Positions 1-10,772 of a stretch of 11,751 nt of DNA are shown here, one piece after another. This DNA comes from a virus: UHGV virus genome UHGV-1581437, one strand, 5' to 3'. Made by a program: the position numbers and the translations under genes. Below the pieces are notes generated by a model, which did no database searches, had not been told where the DNA came from, and saw only the letters and a program-made list of their open reading frames with translations. Each line of letters starts with the position of its first letter. Position 1 is the stretch's first letter.

Positions 1-1773
1 CCCGCCGCAATGCAGCTCAGTGACGCATTGGATACCGTCAGAGATATGTATAGAAAACAACTCCGAAAAGTACCGCCTTCCGCGCCAATCGGGTTCATCC
101 CGGAAAGCTGGAGAAAGGTTGTGATCACCCCCACCGGCATTGACCGAAAATATTACGAATTTTGCGTGCTGAATGAACTGAAGGGAGCCTTACGTTCAGG
201 TGACATCTGGGTAAAGGGGTCACGCCGCTACAGGAATTTCGATGATTATCTGATCCCGTCAGACGATTTTGAAAAATCACTCCGGGATAACCAGTTACCC
301 CTTGCTGTTCCGGCCGATTGCCATGAATACATCAAGAGCCGTTTGACGCTTCTTGCATCGCGTCTGGAAGAAGTTAACGCGATGGCGCTGGCCTGTGATT
401 TACCCGATGTTGATATATCGGATAAAGGCGTGAAAATTACCCCGCTGGATAACAGTGTCCCTTCAGCAGCATCCCCTTTTGGCGATCTGGTTTATGGCAT
501 GCTCCCTCACCCTAAAATTACTGAAATGCTGGATGAAGTGGACGGCTGGACTGGTTTTACCCGCCATTTCACACATCTCAAAAACAATCACGTCAGACCT
601 AAAGACAGAAAGTTGTTACTGACCACCATCCTGGCCGATGGTATCAACCTTGGACTGACAAAAATGGCCGAATCCTGTCCGGGAACGACCAAATCGTCAC
701 TCGAGGGCATTCAGGCCTGGTACATCAGGGATGAAACCTATTCAGCTGCGCTGGCCGAGTTGGTCAATGCCCAGAAAAAAAGCCCTCTGGCGGCATTCTG
801 GGGCGATGGAACAACGTCATCGTCTGATGGACAGAACTTTCGGGTGGGGAGTCACGGGCGTTATGCTGGTCAGGTCAATCTTAAATACGGTCAGGATCCA
901 GGCGTGCAGATTTATACGCATATTTCGGACCAATACAGCCCGTTTTACACCAAAGTTATCAGCCGCGTGCGGGATTCAACACACGTACTTGATGGTCTGC
1001 TGTACCACGAAACTGATCTGGAAATTACAGAGCATTACACCGACACAGCAGGTTTCACTGAGCATGTTTTTGCGCTAATGCATCTGCTCGGATTCGCTTT
1101 TGCGCCAAGGATCCGGGATCTTCATGACAAACGGCTGTTTATTCATGGAAAAGCTGAGTTGTATCAGGGGCTTCAGTCAATCATCTCGACAACCAGCCTG
1201 AATCTAAAGGAAATTGAAACCCACTGGCATGAGGTGCTGCGTCTGGCAAGTTCTATAAAGCAGGGAACGGTAACAGCATCACTGATGATGAAAAAGCTGG
1301 CAAGCTATCCGAAGCAGAATGGTCTGGCAAAGGCGCTGAGAGAGATTGGCCGCATCGAAAGGTCATTGTTTATGCTGGACTGGTTCAGGGATCCTTTACT
1401 GCGTCGACGCGTACAGGCGGGGCTGAATAAAGGTGAGGCTCGCAATGCCCTTGCGCGAGCGGTCTTTATGCATCGGCTGGGTGAAATCAGAGATCGGGGG
1501 CTGGAGAATCAGAGCTATCGAGCCAGCGGTCTGACGTTGCTGACTGCGGCGATCTCACTGCGGAATACGGTATATATAGAAAGAGCGATAGATTCTTTGA
1601 GACGAAAAGGGATCCCGATTAATGAGCAACTGATTACCCATCTGTCACCACTGGGATGGGAACATATCAACCTGAGCGGGGATTACGTCTGGAGAACGAA
1701 CCTCAAACTGGGACAGGGTAAATACCGCGCATTACGCTCAGTGAATAGTAATATGTACAAAAAACAGGCTTAG
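1..1773 (+). CDS. tnpA: Tn3-family DDE transposase TnpA, C-terminal ~590 aa (5' partial; frame is open through bases 1-9)
   Basis: ORF track 10..1773 (587 aa) with no stop in frame back to position 1. Size, composition and a stop codon (TAG 1771-1773) embedded in the terminal IR are typical of Tn3-family TnpA. Not Tn3 itself: the C-terminus differs from the Tn3 TnpA I recall. Confidence 0.88.
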
Positions 1774-1806
1774 CGTAGGATAATTTCCGTTTTCCAAGCG
1801 GACCCC
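1769..1806. repeat. 38-bp Tn3-family terminal inverted repeat (outer end at 1806)
   Basis: Reverse complement of 1769..1806 reads GGGGTCCGCTTGGAAAACGGAAATTATCCTACGCTAAG. It shares the GAAAACGGAAA core and ACGCTAAG inner end with Tn21/Tn501-subgroup IRs as I recall them. The 5 bp immediately outside (1807-1811, ATATA) is the candidate target-site duplication. Confidence 0.8.
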
Positions 1807-2108
1807 ATATAGCAGGCAATGCAGGGGAGAGTGCCAAGAGCATTGGCGATGCGCCGTTCCTCCGCCGTTGGTGTTCTCCCCTTCAAGCCACGAGATTTTA
1901 TTTTTACCGCGCTTTTCCGCGTTTTGCTGGCTGGTGGGCGCTCTTTCTGTTTAGCGATACGGCGGTCGATAGTATCCCGCATTTTCTGATATTGAGATTC
2001 TCGCCAGACCGGATCAGCCAACTTCTCCCGTTGCCGAGCGATCGCTCGTTCTCTGGCTGCCTTCTGCCACTTGCGGCACTGTTCAATTTTTTGTTCGATT
2101 GTTTTCAT
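1807..2108 (-). pseudogene. ref: ref (P1 recombination enhancement function) truncated by the transposon; only ~100 N-terminal codons remain
   Basis: Minus-strand ORF 1770..2108 begins MKTIEQKIEQCRKWQKAARER... (P1 Ref N-terminus as I recall it) and reads up to ...LPCIACYM. It then continues into the transposon IR ([11 protein letters not shown], then stop), so the C-terminal HNH-type domain is missing from this locus. Confidence 0.75.
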
Positions 2109-2717: not shown

Positions 2718-3749
2718 CTAATCGCCATCTTCCAGCAGGCGCACCATTGCCCCTGTTTCACTATCCAGGTTACGGATATAGTTCATGACAATATTTACGT
2801 TGGTCCAGCCACCAGCTTGCATGATCTCCGGTATTGAAACTCCGGCGCGGGCCATATCTCGTGCGGCTCCGACACGGGCACTGTGTCCAGACCAGGCCAG
2901 GTACCTCTGGCCAGAGTCATCCTTAGCCCCGTAAATCAATCGGTGAGTTGCTTCAAAAATCCCTTCCAGGGCGCGAGTTGATAGCTGGCTGGTGGCAGAT
3001 GGCGCGGCAACACCATTTTTTCTGACACGGCAAAACAAGTAGTTATTCGGATCATCAGCTACACCAGAGACAGAAATCCATCGCTCGACCAGTTTAGTTA
3101 CCCCCAGGCTAAGTGCCTTCTCTACACCTGCGGTGCTAACCAGCGTTTTCGTTCTGCCAATATGGATTAACATTCTCCCACCGCCAGTACGCGAGATATC
3201 TTTAACCCTGATCCTGGCAATTTCGGCTATACGTAACAGGGTGTTATAAGCAATCCCCAGAAATGCTAGATTACGTATATCCTGGCAGCGATCGCTATTT
3301 TCCATGAGCGAACGAACCTGGTCGAAATCAGTGCGTTCGAACGCCAGCGCCTGTTTTGCACGTTCACCGGCATCAACGTTTTCTTTTCGGATCCGCCGCA
3401 TGACCAGTGAAACAGCATTGCTGTCACTTGGTCGTGGCAGCCCGGACCGACGATGAAGCATGTTTAGCTGGCCCAAATGTTGCTGGATAGTTTTCACTGC
3501 CAGACCGCGCGCCTGAAGATATAGAAGATAATCGCGAACATCTTCAGGTTCTGCGGGAAACCACTTCCGGTTATTCAACTTGCACCATGCCGCCCACGAC
3601 CGGCAAACGGACAGAAGCATTTTCCAGGTATGCTCAGAAAACGCCTGGCGATCCCTGAACATGTCCATCAGGTTCTTGCGAACCTCATCACTCGTTGCAT
3701 CGACCGGTAATGCAGGCAAATTTTGGTGTACGGTCAGTAAATTGGACAT
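2718..3749 (-). CDS. cre: Cre tyrosine site-specific recombinase
   Basis: 343-aa ORF starting MSNLLTVHQNLPALPVDATSDEVRKNLMDMFRDRQAFSEHTWKMLLSVCRSWAAWCKLNNRKWFPAEPEDVRDYLLYLQARGLAVKTIQQHLGQLNMLHRRSGLPRPSDSNAVSLVMRRIRKENVDAGERAKQALAFERTDFDQVRSLMENSDRCQDIRNLAFLGIAYNTLLRIAEIARIRVKDISRTGGGRMLIHIGRTKTLVSTAGVEKALSLGVTKLVERWISVSGVADDPNNYLFCRVRKNGVAAPSATSQLSTRALEGIFEATHRLIYGAKDDSGQRYLAWSGHSARVGAARDMARAGVSIPEIMQAGGWTNVNIVMNYIRNLDSETGAMVRLLEDGD, which I recognise as Cre; one position reads G where I recall D (RTGGGRM versus RTDGGRM). A loxP site lies ~410 bp upstream. Confidence 0.97.
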   Translation of the reverse strand: MSNLLTVHQNLPALPVDATSDEVRKNLMDMFRDRQAFSEHTWKMLLSVCRSWAAWCKLNNRKWFPAEPEDVRDYLLYLQARGLAVKTIQQHLGQLNMLHRRSGLPRPSDSNAVSLVMRRIRKENVDAGERAKQALAFERTDFDQVRSLMENSDRCQDIRNLAFLGIAYNTLLRIAEIARIRVKDISRTGGGRMLIHIGRTKTLVSTAGVEKALSLGVTKLVERWISVSGVADDPNNYLFCRVRKNGVAAPSATSQLSTRALEGIFEATHRLIYGAKDDSGQRYLAWSGHSARVGAARDMARAGVSIPEIMQAGGWTNVNIVMNYIRNLDSETGAMVRLLEDGD

Positions 3750-3756
3750 TTAACAC

Positions 3757-3978
3757 TCAGATGATGGTTTTAAGTAAAGTGTACAGGATCGGCTCTGCCT
3801 TTACCTGTTTATGGTTCTCGTCATAGAAACGCCAGCGACCGCGCGTGCGTTCTATTTTCTCTTCACCGCGCGATAATGACAGTTGGCAACTATCACGATC
3901 AAACCCTTTTGCCCGCCAGTAACCACGGTTTTTCTCAAGCTCAAGATGAGTGGACACTTTAGCAGTTGAATATCCCAT
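3757..3978 (-). CDS. Small basic protein (73 aa) immediately upstream of cre; likely the cre-associated small gene (cra)
   Basis: ATG preceded by a strong Shine-Dalgarno (minus strand AGAGGTGAAAA-ATG). The stop lies 8 nt before the cre ATG, suggesting co-transcription or coupling with cre. Confidence 0.45.
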   Translation of the reverse strand: MGYSTAKVSTHLELEKNRGYWRAKGFDRDSCQLSLSRGEEKIERTRGRWRFYDENHKQVKAEPILYTLLKTII

Positions 3979-4010
3979 TTTTCACCTCTGATTGATTGGT
4001 GGTGCTAAGT

Positions 4011-4069
4011 GCGCTACGCGAAATCTGTAGGACTAACACCGCCAACTTTTCACAGATTTTACGTAGCGC
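4011..4069. repeat. Long imperfect inverted repeat (~18 of 20 bp arms, ~20-bp spacer) in the loxP-cre regulatory region
   Basis: GCGCTACGCGAAATCTGTAG (4011-4030) pairs with CACAGATTTTACGTAGCGC (4051-4069). Adjacent GATC (Dam) sites at TTGATCAAATGATCA (4075-4089) and TTGATCAT (4135-4142). Confidence 0.5.
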
Positions 4070-4159
4070 AACCTTGATCAAATGATCACTATTTGACCTG
4101 CTAAGGTATTGAACTGTATGGATTTACAGGTAAATTGATCATATTCAATAACCCTTAAG

Positions 4160-4193
4160 ATAACTTCGTATAATGTATGCTATACGAAGTTAT
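4160..4193. other. loxP site-specific recombination site (Cre target)
   Basis: Exact 34-bp match ATAACTTCGTATA-ATGTATGC-TATACGAAGTTAT: two 13-bp inverted arms around the 8-bp asymmetric spacer. Confidence 0.97.
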
Positions 4194-4236
4194 CAGGTCC
4201 GAAGAGGAGTTTACGTCCAGCCGCGCACAAAAATCA

Positions 4237-4253
4237 AGAATTATTAGAGCAAT
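4237..4253 (-). promoter_or_regulatory. C1 operator (Op99-type), minus orientation
   Basis: Minus strand reads ATTGCTCTAATAATTCT (15/17 to consensus ATTGCTCTAATAAATTT). Confidence 0.6.
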
Positions 4254-4313
4254 AAATTTTGAGAGAAAAATCCCACTCCACCAGCTAAAAACTGGATTGT
4301 TTTTCATAGTTGT

Positions 4314-4340
4314 TTGACAATTGCTCTAATAAATTATAGT
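4314..4340 (+). promoter_or_regulatory. C1 operator (Op99-type) overlapping a sigma70-like promoter facing coi-c1
   Basis: TTGACA (4314-4319) followed directly by ATTGCTCTAATAAATTA (4320-4336, 16/17 to consensus) and TATAGT (4335-4340): a -35 and -10 with a 15-bp spacer fully occupied by the operator. Confidence 0.6.
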
Positions 4341-4574
4341 TTTGCCGCCGTTACGTAATACGACTTTGGATTCACTATTTAATGTGTCTTCAGCGTTGTA
4401 GAGCGGCTCAGAAGGAAATGAGCAAACAGGGAAACCTTATACAACGGCATTACAGCTATGCATTGCTCATCTTACACACAGCGCAATGTTGTTAGATTAC
4501 CCCAGCATGGATCATGGGTGAAACAGTAGGTCAGAGCTTCAGGCTCTGTGTTGTCAATACAGTGAGGCATAATT

Positions 4575-4784
4575 ATGGCTTTCATTCAACCAACCATCGA
4601 CGACGTTAGACATTGCTCTAACGCTTTATCTGTAGACCCTGCCGAAACCGACGCTGCCCGCGCCATTGCTGAACACTACTCAAAGATATCCAATCAGGAG
4701 TACCGCATCACCCAAGACGACCTGGATGACCTCACTGACACAATCGAATATCTCATGGCAACTAACCAGTTAGACTCACAATAA
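4575..4784 (+). CDS. coi: Coi (C1 inactivator), 69 aa
   Basis: 69-aa acidic ORF directly upstream of c1 and downstream of the operator cluster; GAGG lies 7 nt before the ATG. Size and position match P1 coi. Confidence 0.85.
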   Translation: MAFIQPTIDDVRHCSNALSVDPAETDAARAIAEHYSKISNQEYRITQDDLDDLTDTIEYLMATNQLDSQ

Positions 4785-4800
4785 ATGCACTAATAAATCT
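4784..4800 (+). promoter_or_regulatory. Weaker C1-operator-like 17-mer between coi and c1
   Basis: AATGCACTAATAAATCT (14/17 to consensus), followed by a TATAAT hexamer at 4820-4825. Confidence 0.35.
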
Positions 4801-4894: not shown

Positions 4895-5746
4895 ATGATA
4901 AATTATGTCTACGGCGAACAACTGTACCAGGAGTTCGTCAGCTTCAGGGATCTCTTTCTAAAAAAAGCTGTTGCACGCGCCCAACACGTTGATACAGCCA
5001 GCGACGGTCGTCCTGTACGCCCGGTTGTCGTTCTACCGTTCAAAGAAACTCACAGCATTCAGGCTGAAATTGATAAATGGACTTTAATGGCGCGGGAACT
5101 GGAACAGTACCCAGACCTCAATATCCCAAAGACTATTTTATATCCAGTGCCTAACATCCTTCGCGGTGTGCGCAAGGTTACAACTTATCAGACAGAAGCT
5201 GTGAACAGCGTCAACATGACCGCTGGCCGCATTATTCATCTGATTGATAAGGACATTCGCATCCAGAAAAGCGCAGGGATCAATGAGCACAGTGCGAAAT
5301 ACATAGAGAACCTGGAAGCAACAAAAGAGCTAATGAAGCAGTACCCGGAGGATGAAAAATTCCGTATGCGCGTACACGGCTTTAGCGAAACAATGCTGCG
5401 CGTCCATTACATTTCCAGTAGCCCTAACTACAATGATGGTAAATCAGTTAGTTACCATGTGCCGCTGTGTGGTGTGTTTATCTGCGATGAAACTCTCCGT
5501 GATGGAATCATCATCAACGGTGAATTCGAGAAAGCAAAATTTAGCCTTTATGACTCTATAGAACCGATCATCTGCGACCGCTGGCCGCAGGCAAAAATAT
5601 ATCGCCTGGCAGATATTGAAAATGTAAAAAAACAAATTGCCATCACTCGCGAAGAGAAAAAGGTCAAATCAGCCGCATCAGTTACGCGCAGCCGTAAAAC
5701 CAAGAAGGGGCAGCCAGTAAACGACAACCCCGAAAGCGCGCAATAA
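4895..5746 (+). CDS. c1: C1 repressor of lysis (primary immunity repressor), 283 aa
   Basis: 283-aa ORF with strong RBS (GGAGGAGG, 4883-4890). Length, position after coi and the surrounding operator array match P1 c1. Confidence 0.92.
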   Translation: MINYVYGEQLYQEFVSFRDLFLKKAVARAQHVDTASDGRPVRPVVVLPFKETHSIQAEIDKWTLMARELEQYPDLNIPKTILYPVPNILRGVRKVTTYQTEAVNSVNMTAGRIIHLIDKDIRIQKSAGINEHSAKYIENLEATKELMKQYPEDEKFRMRVHGFSETMLRVHYISSSPNYNDGKSVSYHVPLCGVFICDETLRDGIIINGEFEKAKFSLYDSIEPIICDRWPQAKIYRLADIENVKKQIAITREEKKVKSAASVTRSRKTKKGQPVNDNPESAQ

Positions 5747-5749
5747 ATT

Positions 5750-5771
5750 ATGCCCGGCATCAACCGGGCAT
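5750..5771. terminator. Bidirectional intrinsic-terminator-like hairpin between convergent c1 and the Ant-like gene
   Basis: ATGCCCGG-CATCAA-CCGGGCAT perfect 8-bp stem with T-rich flanks on both strands, sitting in the 32-bp gap between two convergent stop codons. Confidence 0.6.
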
Positions 5772-5778
5772 TCTTCCA

Positions 5779-6891
5779 TTATTCAGCCGCCACCGGTTTT
5801 AACAAGCCAGCATCGAGCAGTTTACGCGTCAACCACTGCTGGCCTTTACCCGTTAATTGAGGCGTCAACCGTATCTGGTAGCCATCTTCATCATCCAGCA
5901 CCACTTCTTTCACCGTGAAATACCCCGCGTTGATGTACTGCTGGAACGGCACATTTTTACGTCCACCGGACGCTATCAGGATGCCGTTCTCCCGTAACCA
6001 GACAAACAGCGCGTTTTGCTTAAGTCCAACAACCTTTGCAAAATTCCCAATCAGGATCCCTTTAGCTACTGATACCCGGTCGGCAAAATCGACTTTAGGA
6101 GCGGCGGCCACCAGCTGCTGATTTAGCTGGTGGGCTTTCTGTTCCAAAAGCTGCTTTTGTTCAGCCAGTTCGGCAGCCAGGCGCAGAGCTTCTGGAAGCG
6201 TCTGGGGGATTGCAACCGGTTGCTGTTCTTTTTGCCGGAAGTAGCTGTCTTCCAGTTTTTCAAAGAATGCCCATGCTTCATTTGTGTCCACGATCTTAGA
6301 CATGCGTGCAGCGCCGCGCTCTGTCCAGAGTGTAAGGCTTCTGGCGTTCTTACCAACAGAGTAACTTCCGGTTACTCTGTTCTTAAATTCTCTTAATTTT
6401 AAACCAGTTAGAAGAAAGTAATGCTTACCTTCTTCAAAGCGGTCAAGGTTGCGAGACAAATTGTTGCGAATATTGGCTTCATCGACCCCATACCCTCTAG
6501 CAAGAGTTTCGGTTGTCACGACACGTACTCCCTGCCATTCCAGAACGGGAATTTCATCCGGCTGATTCTGAACAACCACCAGTTCCGATTCCTGAACTGA
6601 AGGTGCATAAATTTTTTCTGATTTAACGTTAGTTGCTTTCATTCTGTGTGCCTCCTTGCGTGCTTCGGCTGCGACGGTTGCGTAATTCAGATGACCCTGT
6701 TCGAGCAGGTATTCACGGATATCGGTTAGCAGAATGCGGTGAACCGCGTGTTTGTCCTTTCTCCGGTAAAGTTGTTTGGTGATCATGAAGTAGTTGGCAA
6801 TAACGCCCGGTATATCCCTGGTACTGATACAGGCAGTGTGCTGTTCAATTGCCTCGATCATCTCTTCACGGGTGACTAATGACGTTCTCAT
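5779..6891 (-). CDS. Ant-like antirepressor (370 aa) with an ORF6N/Bro-N-like central domain and a KilAC-type C-terminal domain; in-frame internal start at 6642 would give a 287-aa isoform
   Basis: Strong RBS (minus AGGAGGG 4 nt before ATG). Central segment LEWQGVRVVTTETLARGYGVDEANIRNNLSRNLDRFEEGKHYFLLTG...LWTERGA...FFEKLEDSYF has the ORF6N pattern; the C-terminus (VDFADRVSVAKGILIGNFAKVVGLKQNALFVWLRENGIL...) is KilAC-like. Domain calls are from motif memory, not a search. Confidence 0.85.
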   Translation of the reverse strand: MRTSLVTREEMIEAIEQHTACISTRDIPGVIANYFMITKQLYRRKDKHAVHRILLTDIREYLLEQGHLNYATVAAEARKEAHRMKATNVKSEKIYAPSVQESELVVVQNQPDEIPVLEWQGVRVVTTETLARGYGVDEANIRNNLSRNLDRFEEGKHYFLLTGLKLREFKNRVTGSYSVGKNARSLTLWTERGAARMSKIVDTNEAWAFFEKLEDSYFRQKEQQPVAIPQTLPEALRLAAELAEQKQLLEQKAHQLNQQLVAAAPKVDFADRVSVAKGILIGNFAKVVGLKQNALFVWLRENGILIASGGRKNVPFQQYINAGYFTVKEVVLDDEDGYQIRLTPQLTGKGQQWLTRKLLDAGLLKPVAAE

Positions 6892-7109
6892 AGTCCCTCC
6901 TGAGCAGAAGCGTTAACAGGGAGGCACCAGTAACTGAGAGAATTGCGCGAATCGGTAGAAAAGCGGGCAGAGAAAATACAGGGAGCATCCGGAAGCTGAG
7001 AACGTGCCTCATCTTCTGTCGGTGCAATAACGAAGTGATAGTGACGTTTTTGGCAGGAGTAAAAGCGCCAGATAAATTCAGGATGAGCAGGGGTAGGGAT
7101 AGTAGCCAC
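6888..7109 (-). CDS. Icd-like small protein (73 aa) translationally coupled to the Ant-like gene
   Basis: GTG start 8 nt downstream of a consensus SD (minus AAGGAGG, plus 7118-7124). Its stop overlaps the ant ATG as ATGA (6888-6891). Size and overlap mirror P1 icd-ant1 (73-codon icd, as I recall). Confidence 0.55.
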   Translation of the reverse strand: MATIPTPAHPEFIWRFYSCQKRHYHFVIAPTEDEARSQLPDAPCIFSARFSTDSRNSLSYWCLPVNASAQEGL

Positions 7110-7117
7110 AATGGCAG

Positions 7118-7141
7118 CCTCCTTTTGCTAATTTAAGGAGC
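7118..7141 (-). promoter_or_regulatory. RBS-sequestering hairpin for the Icd-like ORF
   Basis: Minus strand GCTCCTT-AAATTAGCAA-AAGGAGGC: an upstream anti-SD (CTCCTT) can pair with the SD (AAGGAG) of the small ORF. Confidence 0.4.
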
Positions 7142-7293
7142 TACCGCGTGAGGTCTCAATCTCAATGGCGGTAGCACTGACTGGGTTGAGACTACCGGCG
7201 CAAAAGGGAACCGGCCTGCCTTTCGGCAGCCCAGCCAGCACTACCATTGATCTCTGAGCTAAACGCTACGTATGGCTGTGCGATGGCATGACA

Positions 7294-7322
7294 CAAAAAA
7301 AGACGCTTTTGGCGTCTGTGTC
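7294..7322 (-). terminator. Strong rho-independent terminator on the minus strand inside the module leader
   Basis: Minus strand GACAC-AGACGC-CAAAA-GCGTCT-TTTTTTT-GTGTC: GC-rich stem followed by seven T, with an outer GACAC/GTGTC clamp. Confidence 0.6.
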
Positions 7323-7430
7323 GCCTTTTGCATTATCCGGGGTCTCAATCCCGGCACCCGTTTTACTGAGGTGCCTGATAAGCATAAACCGAAAATGCCT
7401 CAAGGCGCAAGAGGTCAGGTTCAATGTAAC
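7294..7430 (-). ncRNA. Candidate C4-like antisense regulatory RNA (about 120-135 nt) running from the operator-overlapped promoter to the terminator
   Basis: Promoter-like elements on the minus strand (TTGTGT, 17-bp spacer, TACATT) next to a C1-operator-like site. Hairpin CCGGG-AUUGAGAC-CCCGG (plus 7337-7354). Terminator at 7294-7322. The loop is complementary to a downstream leader site. No protein-coding potential. Confidence 0.35.
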
Positions 7431-7448
7431 ATCGGTAGTTAAAAAACA

Positions 7449-7465
7449 CAATTTATTAGAGCAAA
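7449..7465 (-). promoter_or_regulatory. C1-operator-like 17-mer at the head of the sRNA/icd-like/ant-like module
   Basis: Minus strand TTTGCTCTAATAAATTG (15/17 to consensus), starting 4 nt after the pacB stop and overlapping the candidate promoter. Confidence 0.55.
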
Positions 7466-7468
7466 TAT

Positions 7469-8953
7469 TCATTCATTAAGCCATGCCAGAGCTTCATCAA
7501 CCTGCGCTTCGTCTTCGACGCTAAGCACTTCGTCCTGGGGAACATAATCCGCCAGCATAGCGAAACAATATGTATCCCAATGGTCTGGTGAGTGCAGGTT
7601 GAGTTTTTTCTTCATATCCTCCTTACTCATCACCTTCCATTGACCTGCGGAGTTAATCCCTACAGGGATTTTCGACGCTTCCTCAATAGTTTCATTACCC
7701 TTATCCAGTCTCATACGACCAGATTTTACGGCCTCTGCGGCTTGAACGTTGGCATAAGCACGTTTATCAAAGTACAGGCTCTTATCTTCACGGCTATGCA
7801 TCTTTTTACCCCAGCGTATACGCTGTACGGTAATACCATAATACTCGTACATCAGATCCGCCGTTGCTTTACCCAGGCCATCGCCGTCTATCGCTATGGT
7901 GATATTTGGGAATCGCTCAGGATTACATTCTGCGAAAATTTTGGCGGCAAGCTGCGTTTCTGTAACGTCTGTGTATTCCAGCATTCGATAGTTGATTACA
8001 CGGCGTTTATTTCGCTGGCCGGACACCATCATGATATTGATAACGGACTTATCCCGTCCCGTACCACCAGCAACGTCCACACATGCAAGCCAGCCCCATC
8101 CTTTTGCAATCTTGACTTTCCGCCGCGTTGCACGTTCAACCTCATCACGTCCAAGAAGGAAGCCATCCTGTGATTTAGGGAATAGGCCGCGTACCTTAAT
8201 CATGTACATAGGGTTATCACGCCCGCCGTACTCCGCCAGCTTCATTTTGATAAATGCTGGCGTTACCAACGGTGATTCCTCACTGTTAAGCGTGATCGCC
8301 GTATAAACGCCATCAGGGTTACCAGGACGCTTGGCCAGTTTATGGTGTGTATCGTAGAAATAGCCGCTTGGGCGTGTAGGCTGTGACAGCAATAAGATGC
8401 GGTTATCCTGTCCGGTAAGAGCACCGGTGATGATACCGAAAGCTCTATCACTGACACCGGAGGCTTCATCGATAATATACAGAAGATGATCTGCGTGTTC
8501 ACCGGCGAGAGCTTCTTCACTTCCCAGACGAAAGCCCTTCGGTACTACAGTCCATACACCTTTACCAGTAATCTCATAGAAAGCGGTTTCTGTCAGAACA
8601 AAATAATCAGCAAGCCATGGGAAACGGCTGGTGGCAGTAGCCCAGTTTATCTTGATGTACTTGAATATACCGGTCATTACCTGCTGAATTTTGTTCGCAA
8701 CGATAATGGCACGGGCACCTGGATACATGATTATGAACAACATGATCATGATAGAAGTCATGTCTGATTTCCCGGTACCGTGACCAGACGAAACAGATGT
8801 CTTGCTACCCTGTTCCTGCACAGACTCAATAATCAGATCCTGCTGCCAGGTAGGTGTTTTGCCGAACAAAACATCAGCGGCCGCAATCCAGTCATAACGA
8901 TATAGCGCCACCAGCTCGCGCCAACGTGGATCCGTTACGCAACTTCTGGCCAT
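7469..8953 (-). CDS. pacB: Terminase large subunit PacB (494 aa)
   Basis: 494-aa ORF with a Walker A-like motif (SSGHGTGKS) and acidic nuclease-type motifs. Its ATG overlaps the pacA stop (TAATG). Size and order match P1 pacB. Confidence 0.92.
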
Positions 8954-10755: not shown

Positions 10756-10772
10756 CAATACATTAGAGCAAT
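10756..10772 (-). promoter_or_regulatory. C1-operator-like 17-mer overlapping the lpa promoter
   Basis: Minus strand ATTGCTCTAATGTATTG (13/17 to consensus). TTGCTC inside the operator serves as -35, then a 17-bp spacer, then TTTAAT as -10, all upstream of lpa. Confidence 0.6.

Follow-up and report, generated by a model that had tools for sequence, protein, structure and literature searches.

The 11,751-nucleotide stretch analysed here (the window) belongs to the UHGV virus genome UHGV-1581437 and comes from a P1-like phage-plasmid. Between its c1 and pacB genes lies a 1.7-kb segment that is very probably a second, self-contained operon of the immI type. Textbook P1 immunity comprises immC, immI and immT. 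The immI regions of P1 and P7 (annotated in AF234172) have a C1 operator and two promoters, to which an operator-like site and two candidate promoters of the window cassette correspond, and share with it the a1/b1 sites, a C4 RNA (RF01695), the a2/b2 sites, Icd and an ATGA overlap, in this order. They also share a 73-amino-acid Icd, nested ant1 and ant2 genes with Met84, and the position of a2/b2 over the icd ribosome-binding site; when the two are aligned element by element, a terminator-like hairpin and the icd start correspond as well. Several differences set the two apart. P1 and P7 immI lie between sim and kilA-repL, whereas the window cassette lies between c1 and pacB; their leader is c4-a1b1, that of the window is an Rfam isrK element with a stronger intrinsic terminator; the a'/b' specificity of the window is a different one, and its Ant has an ORF6N centre and is 23 amino acids longer.

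Organisation of the c1-pacB cassette

The stop codons of c1 and pacB are 24 bp apart in P1 (AF234172), which agrees with the order given in a first-pass annotation of the window (c1 close behind pacB). In the window they are separated by a 1,722-bp insert (5747-7468). BLAST similarity to P1 stops at the c1 stop (5745) and restarts at the pacB stop (7471), the P1 spacer being swapped exactly for the cassette, stop codon to stop codon. The insert and its features lie on the minus strand, co-oriented with pacAB and convergent with c1. P1, P7 and SJ46 match the flanks only and their c1-pacB junction is empty; an alignment against P1 and P7 had been proposed as a check. The whole insert is present in the phages JL22, RCS47 and vB_EcoM-673R5 (673R5). 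All the elements of the immI-like module that the first-pass annotation had described between pacB and c1 were found at or near where it had put them. Target-site duplications or repeats were sought at the cassette borders and none were seen; as the spacer is also replaced exactly, the junction would fit either a gain or a loss of the cassette. The 3' end of pacB (7471-7874) is 86% identical to P1, against 98% for the neighbouring 3' end of c1, and this contrast suggests a mosaic breakpoint at the cassette.

The C1 operator-like site TTTGCTCTAATAAATTG (7449-7465) begins 3 nucleotides past the pacB stop, has two mismatches to the consensus and aligns with P1 Oc4 (Op51). Sites of this kind occur three times in the window and in none of 200 shuffles. 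A scan of viral contigs (IMG/VR) for the conserved first hairpin of the leader described below gave 120 cassette loci with an IsrK leader and a C4 RNA. A C1 operator-like site with three or fewer mismatches is found in three of these loci, all of the P1-junction type, and the pacB 3' end is directly upstream in two of the three. This confinement to P1-junction copies suggests that the cassette is specifically wired into the P1 circuit. Further operator-like 17-mers with one to three mismatches are located at 4237-4253, 4320-4336, 4784-4800 and 10756-10772; the first three correspond to the positions of P1 Oc1e, Oc1d and Oc1a, and the last lies between lpa and pdcB.

Two candidate promoters follow. 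The upstream candidate (7423-7451) overlaps the operator and consists of a -35 hexamer TTGTGT (7446-7451), a 17-nucleotide spacer and a -10 hexamer TACATT (7423-7428). By alignment only, it corresponds in position to P2c4/P51a of P1, a promoter under C1 control, and its hexamers are on a par with those of the annotated P51a. The downstream candidate (7381-7410) has TTGCGC (7405-7410), an 18-nucleotide spacer and TATGCT (7381-7386). It aligns as the positional homolog of P1 P1c4/P51b and ends 6-7 nucleotides before the start of the IsrK model at 7374. The C1-operator-like promoter of the first-pass annotation is thus borne out for the operator, whose sequence is non-random; its promoters are candidates that align with P51a and P51b and that a generic sigma-70 scan did not call.

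The leader RNA (7294-7374) is of the IsrK type: two hairpins are followed by an unpaired stretch and then by an intrinsic terminator with a U-run. Rfam isrK (RF01394) matches it at 7296-7374 over model positions 1-77 with 58.2 bits (gathering score 50). The a1 site, UUGAGAC (7342-7348), is in the loop of hairpin 2, the b1 site, GCAAAAGG (7324-7331), is single-stranded, and the terminator is at 7301-7317. Multiple alignment makes the leader the positional homolog of the P1 c4-a1b1 element; this position scores RF03163 in P1 and pHNTH9F11-2, and isrK in the junction cassettes. A short, structured and terminated RNA had been predicted here and is present, but it is a target leader carrying a1 and b1, not the repressor RNA. 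A 4-bp anti-terminator formed by GGCG of b1 and the left arm of the terminator, which would allow C4-dependent attenuation, was considered and is too weak for a claim. We also set aside as a probable overcall the 68-amino-acid open reading frame (ORF) at 7266-7472 (JL22 gp120), which sits on the operator, promoters and leader; it has no match in Pfam or NCBIfam and one weak match in PHROG (E 5.5e-4).

The icd homolog (6888-7109) encodes 73 amino acids from a GTG start at 7109, and its stop overlaps the start of ant in an ATGA (6888-6891). The product is 81% identical to P1 Icd, also of 73 amino acids, over residues 10-73, and matches NCBIfam phage_ICD_like (E 2.6e-13). For icd the ratio of nonsynonymous to synonymous substitution rates (dN/dS) is 0.05-0.06 when junction copies are compared with one another and 0.09 when the comparison is with P1, which is strong purifying selection.

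The ant1 homolog (5779-6891) encodes a protein of 370 amino acids whose identity to P1 Ant1, taken along its entire length, is 57%. Its N-terminal 84 residues and its C-terminal KilAC domain resemble P1 Ant1, and the 3' 335 bp of the gene are 86.6% identical to P1 ant DNA. The protein matches Pfam ANT/KilAC (PF03374, residues 258-359, 107.3 bits with a cut-off of 25.3, E 6.5e-31), Pfam ORF6N (PF10543, residues 116-200, 66.6 bits with a cut-off of 27.8, E 2.5e-18) and PHROG 63 'anti-repressor Ant' (E 1e-134). The gene is a mosaic with dN/dS of 0.2-0.4. An ant2 homolog (5779-6642) is nested in frame, starting at Met84 behind the Shine-Dalgarno sequence AAGGAGG, at the same codon position as P1 ant2. 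The overlapping 73- and 370-codon genes had both been noticed in the first-pass annotation, and the comparison with P1 that it proposed identifies them as true homologs of Icd and Ant1/Ant2. It had also placed a bidirectional terminator between this convergent operon and c1; a hairpin at 5750-5771, between the ant and c1 stops, can form in RNA of either strand (z -4.1 and -3.9) and is a candidate for it.

C4 RNA, its targets and its specificity

Between the leader and icd lies a C4-type antisense RNA (7164-7251) with a long closing stem and two hairpins. It scores 75 bits against Rfam RF01695 (gathering score 45) and folds with a minimum free energy of -46.4 kcal/mol (z -5.6). This repressor RNA had been overlooked when the small RNA of the cassette was first annotated, an annotation that was to this extent incomplete. 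The b' element, CCUUUUGC (7200-7207), forms the loop of hairpin 2, and the a' element, GUCUCAA (7186-7192), is a single-stranded linker. The 39-amino-acid ORF at 7128-7247, which PGAP calls an 'ash family protein', sits on the C4 RNA and has no match in Pfam, NCBIfam or PHROG; we regard it as a probable overcall.

The C4 RNA is separated from the icd start by a 54-nucleotide spacer (7110-7163) that forms the translation-initiation region. This contains a2, UUGAGAC (7153-7159), upstream of icd, and b2, GCAAAAGG (7121-7128), which overlaps the Shine-Dalgarno sequence AGGAGG (7118-7123) of icd. The perfect complements of a' and b' therefore occur twice, once in the leader and once downstream of C4. 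At the icd initiation region the cognate target duplexes are predicted at -12.4 and -8.8 kcal/mol.

The annotated P1 targets, TTGACAG for a1 and a2 and GTTAGTGC and GTTAGTGA for b1 and b2, are complementary to the P1 C4 linker CUGUCAA and loop UCACUAAC. The a'/b' types are thus GUCUCAA/CCUUUUGC in the window, CUGUCAA/UCACUAAC in P1 and CUGCUAA/UCACAAUC in P7. Variants also exist at the junction itself. The RCS47 junction cassette has the b' loop CCUUUGAC, and its b1 and b2 are both GUCAAAGG. The 673R5 junction cassette has the loop CCUUGGAC with b1 and b2 GUCUAAGG (one G-U pair) and the linker AGGCCAA with a1 UUGGCCU and a2 UUGGUCU. Compensatory changes in b'/b1/b2 and in a'/a1/a2 thus connect the window, RCS47 and 673R5, and at least three a'/b' types are found at the c1-pacB site.

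The 120 viral-contig loci and the reference loci make up 62 distinct cassettes, in which there are 12 a' sequences, 30 b' sequences and 36 combinations of the two, indicating a large space of immunity specificities. The median contiguous complementarity of a' is 7 nucleotides to the cognate a1 and 0 to non-cognate a1, and 7 against 4 for a2; that of b' is 9 against 5 nucleotides for b1 and 10 against 5 for b2. This covariation shows that the C4-target pairings are under selection. Other viral contigs from enterobacteria are rich in cassettes with an IsrK leader and a C4 RNA, and many of these have an ORF beginning MANRKQ in place of Icd and may be P4/PICI-like.

In a crude matrix of duplex energies between excised segments, the sums for cognate C4-target pairs are -19 to -22 kcal/mol, and those between junction and canonical cassettes are -3.6 to -12.7 kcal/mol. 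The C4 segments of the window match the targets of their own cassette and not those of immI of the P1/P7 type. As replicons with both cassettes have another a'/b' pair in their canonical immI (see below), the junction C4 circuit and the P1/P7-type immI circuits should be free of cross-repression.

Canonical immI, alternative readings and related cassettes

The first-pass annotation had offered two explanations for the cassette, a relocated immI or a second one. A complete canonical immI (c4-icd-ant next to kilA-repL) is retained alongside the junction cassette in JL22, RCS47, 673R5 and pHNTH9F11-2, which speaks for a second cassette. Of these, pHNTH9F11-2 (NZ_CP054193) is 99.7% identical to the window over the cassette, with icd-ant-kilA-repL at 7.1-10.2 kb and the junction cassette at 51.6-53.1 kb. 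The canonical immI of JL22, RCS47 and 673R5 is complete, with 99-100% coverage by a P1 immI query. The canonical C4 RNA is of the P7 type in pHNTH9F11-2 and RCS47, a hybrid of P1 a' and P7 b' in JL22, and of another type in 673R5, and in each of the four relatives it differs from the junction C4 on the same replicon.

Relocation would mean that the canonical c4-icd-ant had moved to the c1-pacB site and was the sole immI of its replicon. The Tn3-family end that truncates ref in the window fits this idea, as the window may come from a rearranged hybrid that is missing other P1 regions, and a few plasmids with the cassette have one matching place only (e.g. NZ_CP139810.1 and CP057803.1). We nevertheless consider relocation very improbable, as both cassettes are present in all four complete P1-like relatives inspected and at least two matching places are found in 37 of the 40 best plasmid matches. 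The junction cassette is also unlike the canonical one in leader type, C4 loops, Ant centre and flanks (no sim, kilA or repL), and is on these grounds a paralog that has diverged, not the canonical operon in a new place.

The first-pass annotation had spoken of an acquisition at the immC border; the cassette is neither rare nor newly acquired in this replicon. A P1 junction probe retrieved 703 plasmids from PLSDB. At least 80% of the cassette is present in 309 PLSDB plasmids, about 44% of these roughly 703 P1-type plasmids, and in 302 of 5,426 complete E. coli genomes, almost always on plasmids. The other side of this distribution, a contiguous empty junction in 314 of the 703, shows the cassette to be dispensable and would suit a decaying or inert duplicate, carried as a passenger remnant with no regulatory function. 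Some copies are indeed damaged. The ant ORF of the 673R5 junction is only 774 nucleotides long (locus coordinates 1224-1997), has an out-of-frame end and looks frameshifted, and that of phi456 (locus coordinates 3380-4495) is truncated by IS1, with pacAB lost; such copies likewise imply dispensability. Against an inert remnant stand the intact ORFs of the window, the low dN/dS of icd, the compensatory changes that tie C4 to both target sets among the variants, the conserved C1 operator and the high prevalence of copies at 97-99.8% identity. We consider an inert remnant very improbable.

The central third of the window Ant is an ORF6N domain that is absent from P1 Ant1, and its target could therefore differ from C1, or be additional to C1. 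It is conceivable, though unlikely, that the same RNA logic serves another target. Ant would then act on the repressors of co-resident prophages or as a DNA-binding or toxic protein like KilA or Roi, and the cassette would be an inter-phage weapon or a host-control module. Besides the ORF6N swap, the C-terminal 164 amino acids of Ant are also 60% identical to P1 KilA, and JL22 labels the gene 'Roi DNA binding protein'. There is also a precedent in Gifsy-1, where the homologous IsrK-controlled AnrP raises antQ expression and AntQ then arrests growth (PMC4825925). The parts of the protein outside the centre argue for C1 as the target: P1 Ant, which binds C1, has the same Ant1-specific N-terminus (identity judged by eye at about 65-70%), the same internal start of Ant2 and a like C-terminal domain (about 90%, also by eye). 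The cassette moreover appears to be wired to C1 through its operator.

The reading as a functional second immI-type operon has further points to contend with, and these weigh against it together with the ORF6N centre and the damaged copies. The generic sigma-70 scan called neither promoter candidate; both are weak and their basis is alignment to annotated P1 promoters alone. The leader fold by itself is not unusually stable (z -1.6). The duplex-energy matrix is crude, and in it one cross-pair among the canonical types scores like a cognate pair. The evidence for a canonical immI alongside the cassette is all drawn from relatives.

Phage D6 contains a partial relative of the cassette, orf83-orf82 (MF356679). 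Its leader, C4, a2/b2 and the 5' part of icd are 95% identical to the window at the DNA level, and a'/b' are identical. There is no C1 operator, however, the sequence before the leader start differs apart from a kept -35 TTGCGC, the antirepressor is of the Rha type and not Ant/KilAC, and the site lies between homologs of pmgF and ref. Independent recombination of the RNA and protein modules is evident from this arrangement. D6 has two C4-icd-antirepressor cassettes of different specificity; in the other, close to repL, the leader resembles that of P1. For a D6-like plasmid, the presence of a second c4/icd region is already on record (PMC6799933).

The isrK-orf45-anrP locus of Gifsy-1 (Hershko-Shalev et al. 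2016, PMC4825925) resembles the cassette in having a terminated leader of the IsrK family, partial read-through into a small ORF, an ATGA-coupled antirepressor, and a short RNA that is complementary to a downstream regulatory RNA region. Where Gifsy-1 has orf45, the window instead has a C4-scoring RNA and then the conserved 73-amino-acid Icd, under a P1 C1 operator. Gifsy-1 IsrK activates in trans the translation of the coupled small ORF and antirepressor (PMC4825925); such activation, and binding of Hfq, are known for Gifsy-1 only. From the complementarity of a1/b1 to C4 we infer that the short leader of the window may activate in trans as well.

The CI RNA of the satellite phage P4 and its targets seqA and seqC follow the same Rfam clan logic, in which a small RNA is processed and then pairs with sites on either side of its own gene. 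In P4, CI causes transcription to terminate prematurely and thereby controls replication genes, with no Icd or Ant. Rfam C4 and isrK profiles pick up relatives of the P4 CI RNA and of its seqA target (PMC10111431), and the isrK-leader and C4 pattern of the window agrees with this remark.

The cassette is already visible in annotations and has been briefly noted in one paper. PGAP labels its products 'phage antirepressor Ant/KilAC' and 'host cell division inhibitor Icd-like', with the 'ash family protein' over the C4 RNA, and the RCS47 record annotates 'ant' at the c1-pacB site; the RCS47 Ant is 86% identical to that of the window. Venturini et al. (2019, PMC6906374) mentioned that pTZ20_1P and RCS47 have an 'ant' insertion separating pacB from c1, in which they saw an antirepressor gene and two short hypothetical ORFs; this insertion and the window cassette are one and the same element, at one site. 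Their account is without the C4 RNA, the leader, the operator or the differences in specificity, and in the searchable literature, a search that left out the D6 genome paper, we found no description of these features. What the present analysis adds is the dissection at the RNA level and the mismatch between the junction C4 and the co-resident immI.

In the remainder of the window, the stretch 10-1806 is the right end of a Tn3-family transposon, with a transposase fragment (10-1773, plus strand) comprising the C-terminal 587 amino acids of tnpA and a 38-bp terminal inverted repeat that ends at 1806. Similarity to P1-like plasmids begins exactly at this end, and the ref homolog (ORF 1770-2108, minus strand) is cut short by the insertion. 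The IncF hybrid plasmid CP057248.1 has the same Tn3/ref junction at 100% identity, yet its c1-pacB junction is empty, and it is not the parent of the window. Among plasmids and E. coli genomes, the best matches cover 85-97% of the window. Then follow c8, cre (2718-3749, minus strand) and cra, a perfect 34-bp loxP (4160-4193) that, like its P1 counterpart, separates cra from the imcA/B-coi region, and on the plus strand coi (4575-4784) and c1 (4895-5746; NCBIfam equivalog phage_rep_C1, 609.7 bits). Beyond the cassette lie pacB (7469-8953, minus strand), pacA, lpa and pdcB.

Proposed regulation and implications for P1-like phage-plasmids

In P1 a complex of Ant1 and Ant2 binds and inactivates C1, and C4 is processed by RNase P. 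Work by Citron and Schuster in 1990 and by Riedel et al. in 1993 is said to have established the regulation of P1 immI. The P1 mechanism is summarised in PMC8198154, and by homology with it we propose the following scheme for the cassette. Its inferred parts are that the promoters are active, that C1 binds the operator, that the RNAs are processed, that C4 represses translation, that Ant interacts with C1 and that superinfection is affected.

Basal transcription would start at the weak P51b-like promoter and, without C1, also at the operator-overlapped P51a-like promoter. Some transcripts would end at the leader terminator and give a short IsrK-like RNA, others would read through and give the C4 RNA. 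The a' and b' elements of C4 would pair with a2 and b2 and cover the ribosome-binding site of icd. With icd silent, the translationally coupled ant1 and ant2 would be silent too, C1 would remain active and the plasmid prophage would be maintained. If target transcripts came to exceed C4, Icd and Ant would be made and Ant would inactivate C1. Such an excess could arise from infection, from loss of C1 or from titration of C4 by the leader with its a1 and b1 sites, the last by analogy with the trans-activation by Gifsy-1 IsrK of its own read-through transcript. There is no terminator between the pacB stop and the operator, and we speculate that late pacAB transcripts might read into the cassette. 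Given the differences in a'/b', each cassette should be silenced by its own C4 only, and an element with both cassettes should have two immunity specificities.

In E. coli and Salmonella, resistance genes are often carried by P1-like phage-plasmids, whose immunity systems determine which of these elements can coexist and which can superinfect or induce others. We tentatively raise the possibility of a combinatorial immunity code, in which P1-like phage-plasmids accumulate C4/Ant cassettes that are orthogonal to one another. The c1-pacB cassette would contribute a second RNA specificity that evolves independently. An element with two cassettes would in that case resist superinfection by relatives of both types, and its own Ant, when unrepressed, could break the immunity of lysogens with a single cassette. 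A C1-controlled burst of the leader with its a1 and b1 sites would serve as a decoy for C4 and make derepression switch-like. The 314 empty and 309 occupied junctions would reflect an ongoing arms race over the coexistence and displacement of phage-plasmids, among them those with resistance genes.

Close to half of the P1-type plasmids found in nature have a fourth immunity locus, in all probability a second immI with an RNA specificity of its own that is wired to C1. If the two circuits are indeed free of cross-repression, immunity typing must cover both cassettes, and the heteroimmunity of P1 and P7 would be one axis of a larger specificity space. The cassette further connects the IsrK RNAs of Salmonella with the a1/b1 sites of P1, which had long lacked an explanation: both look like an upstream target or decoy of C4-type RNAs.

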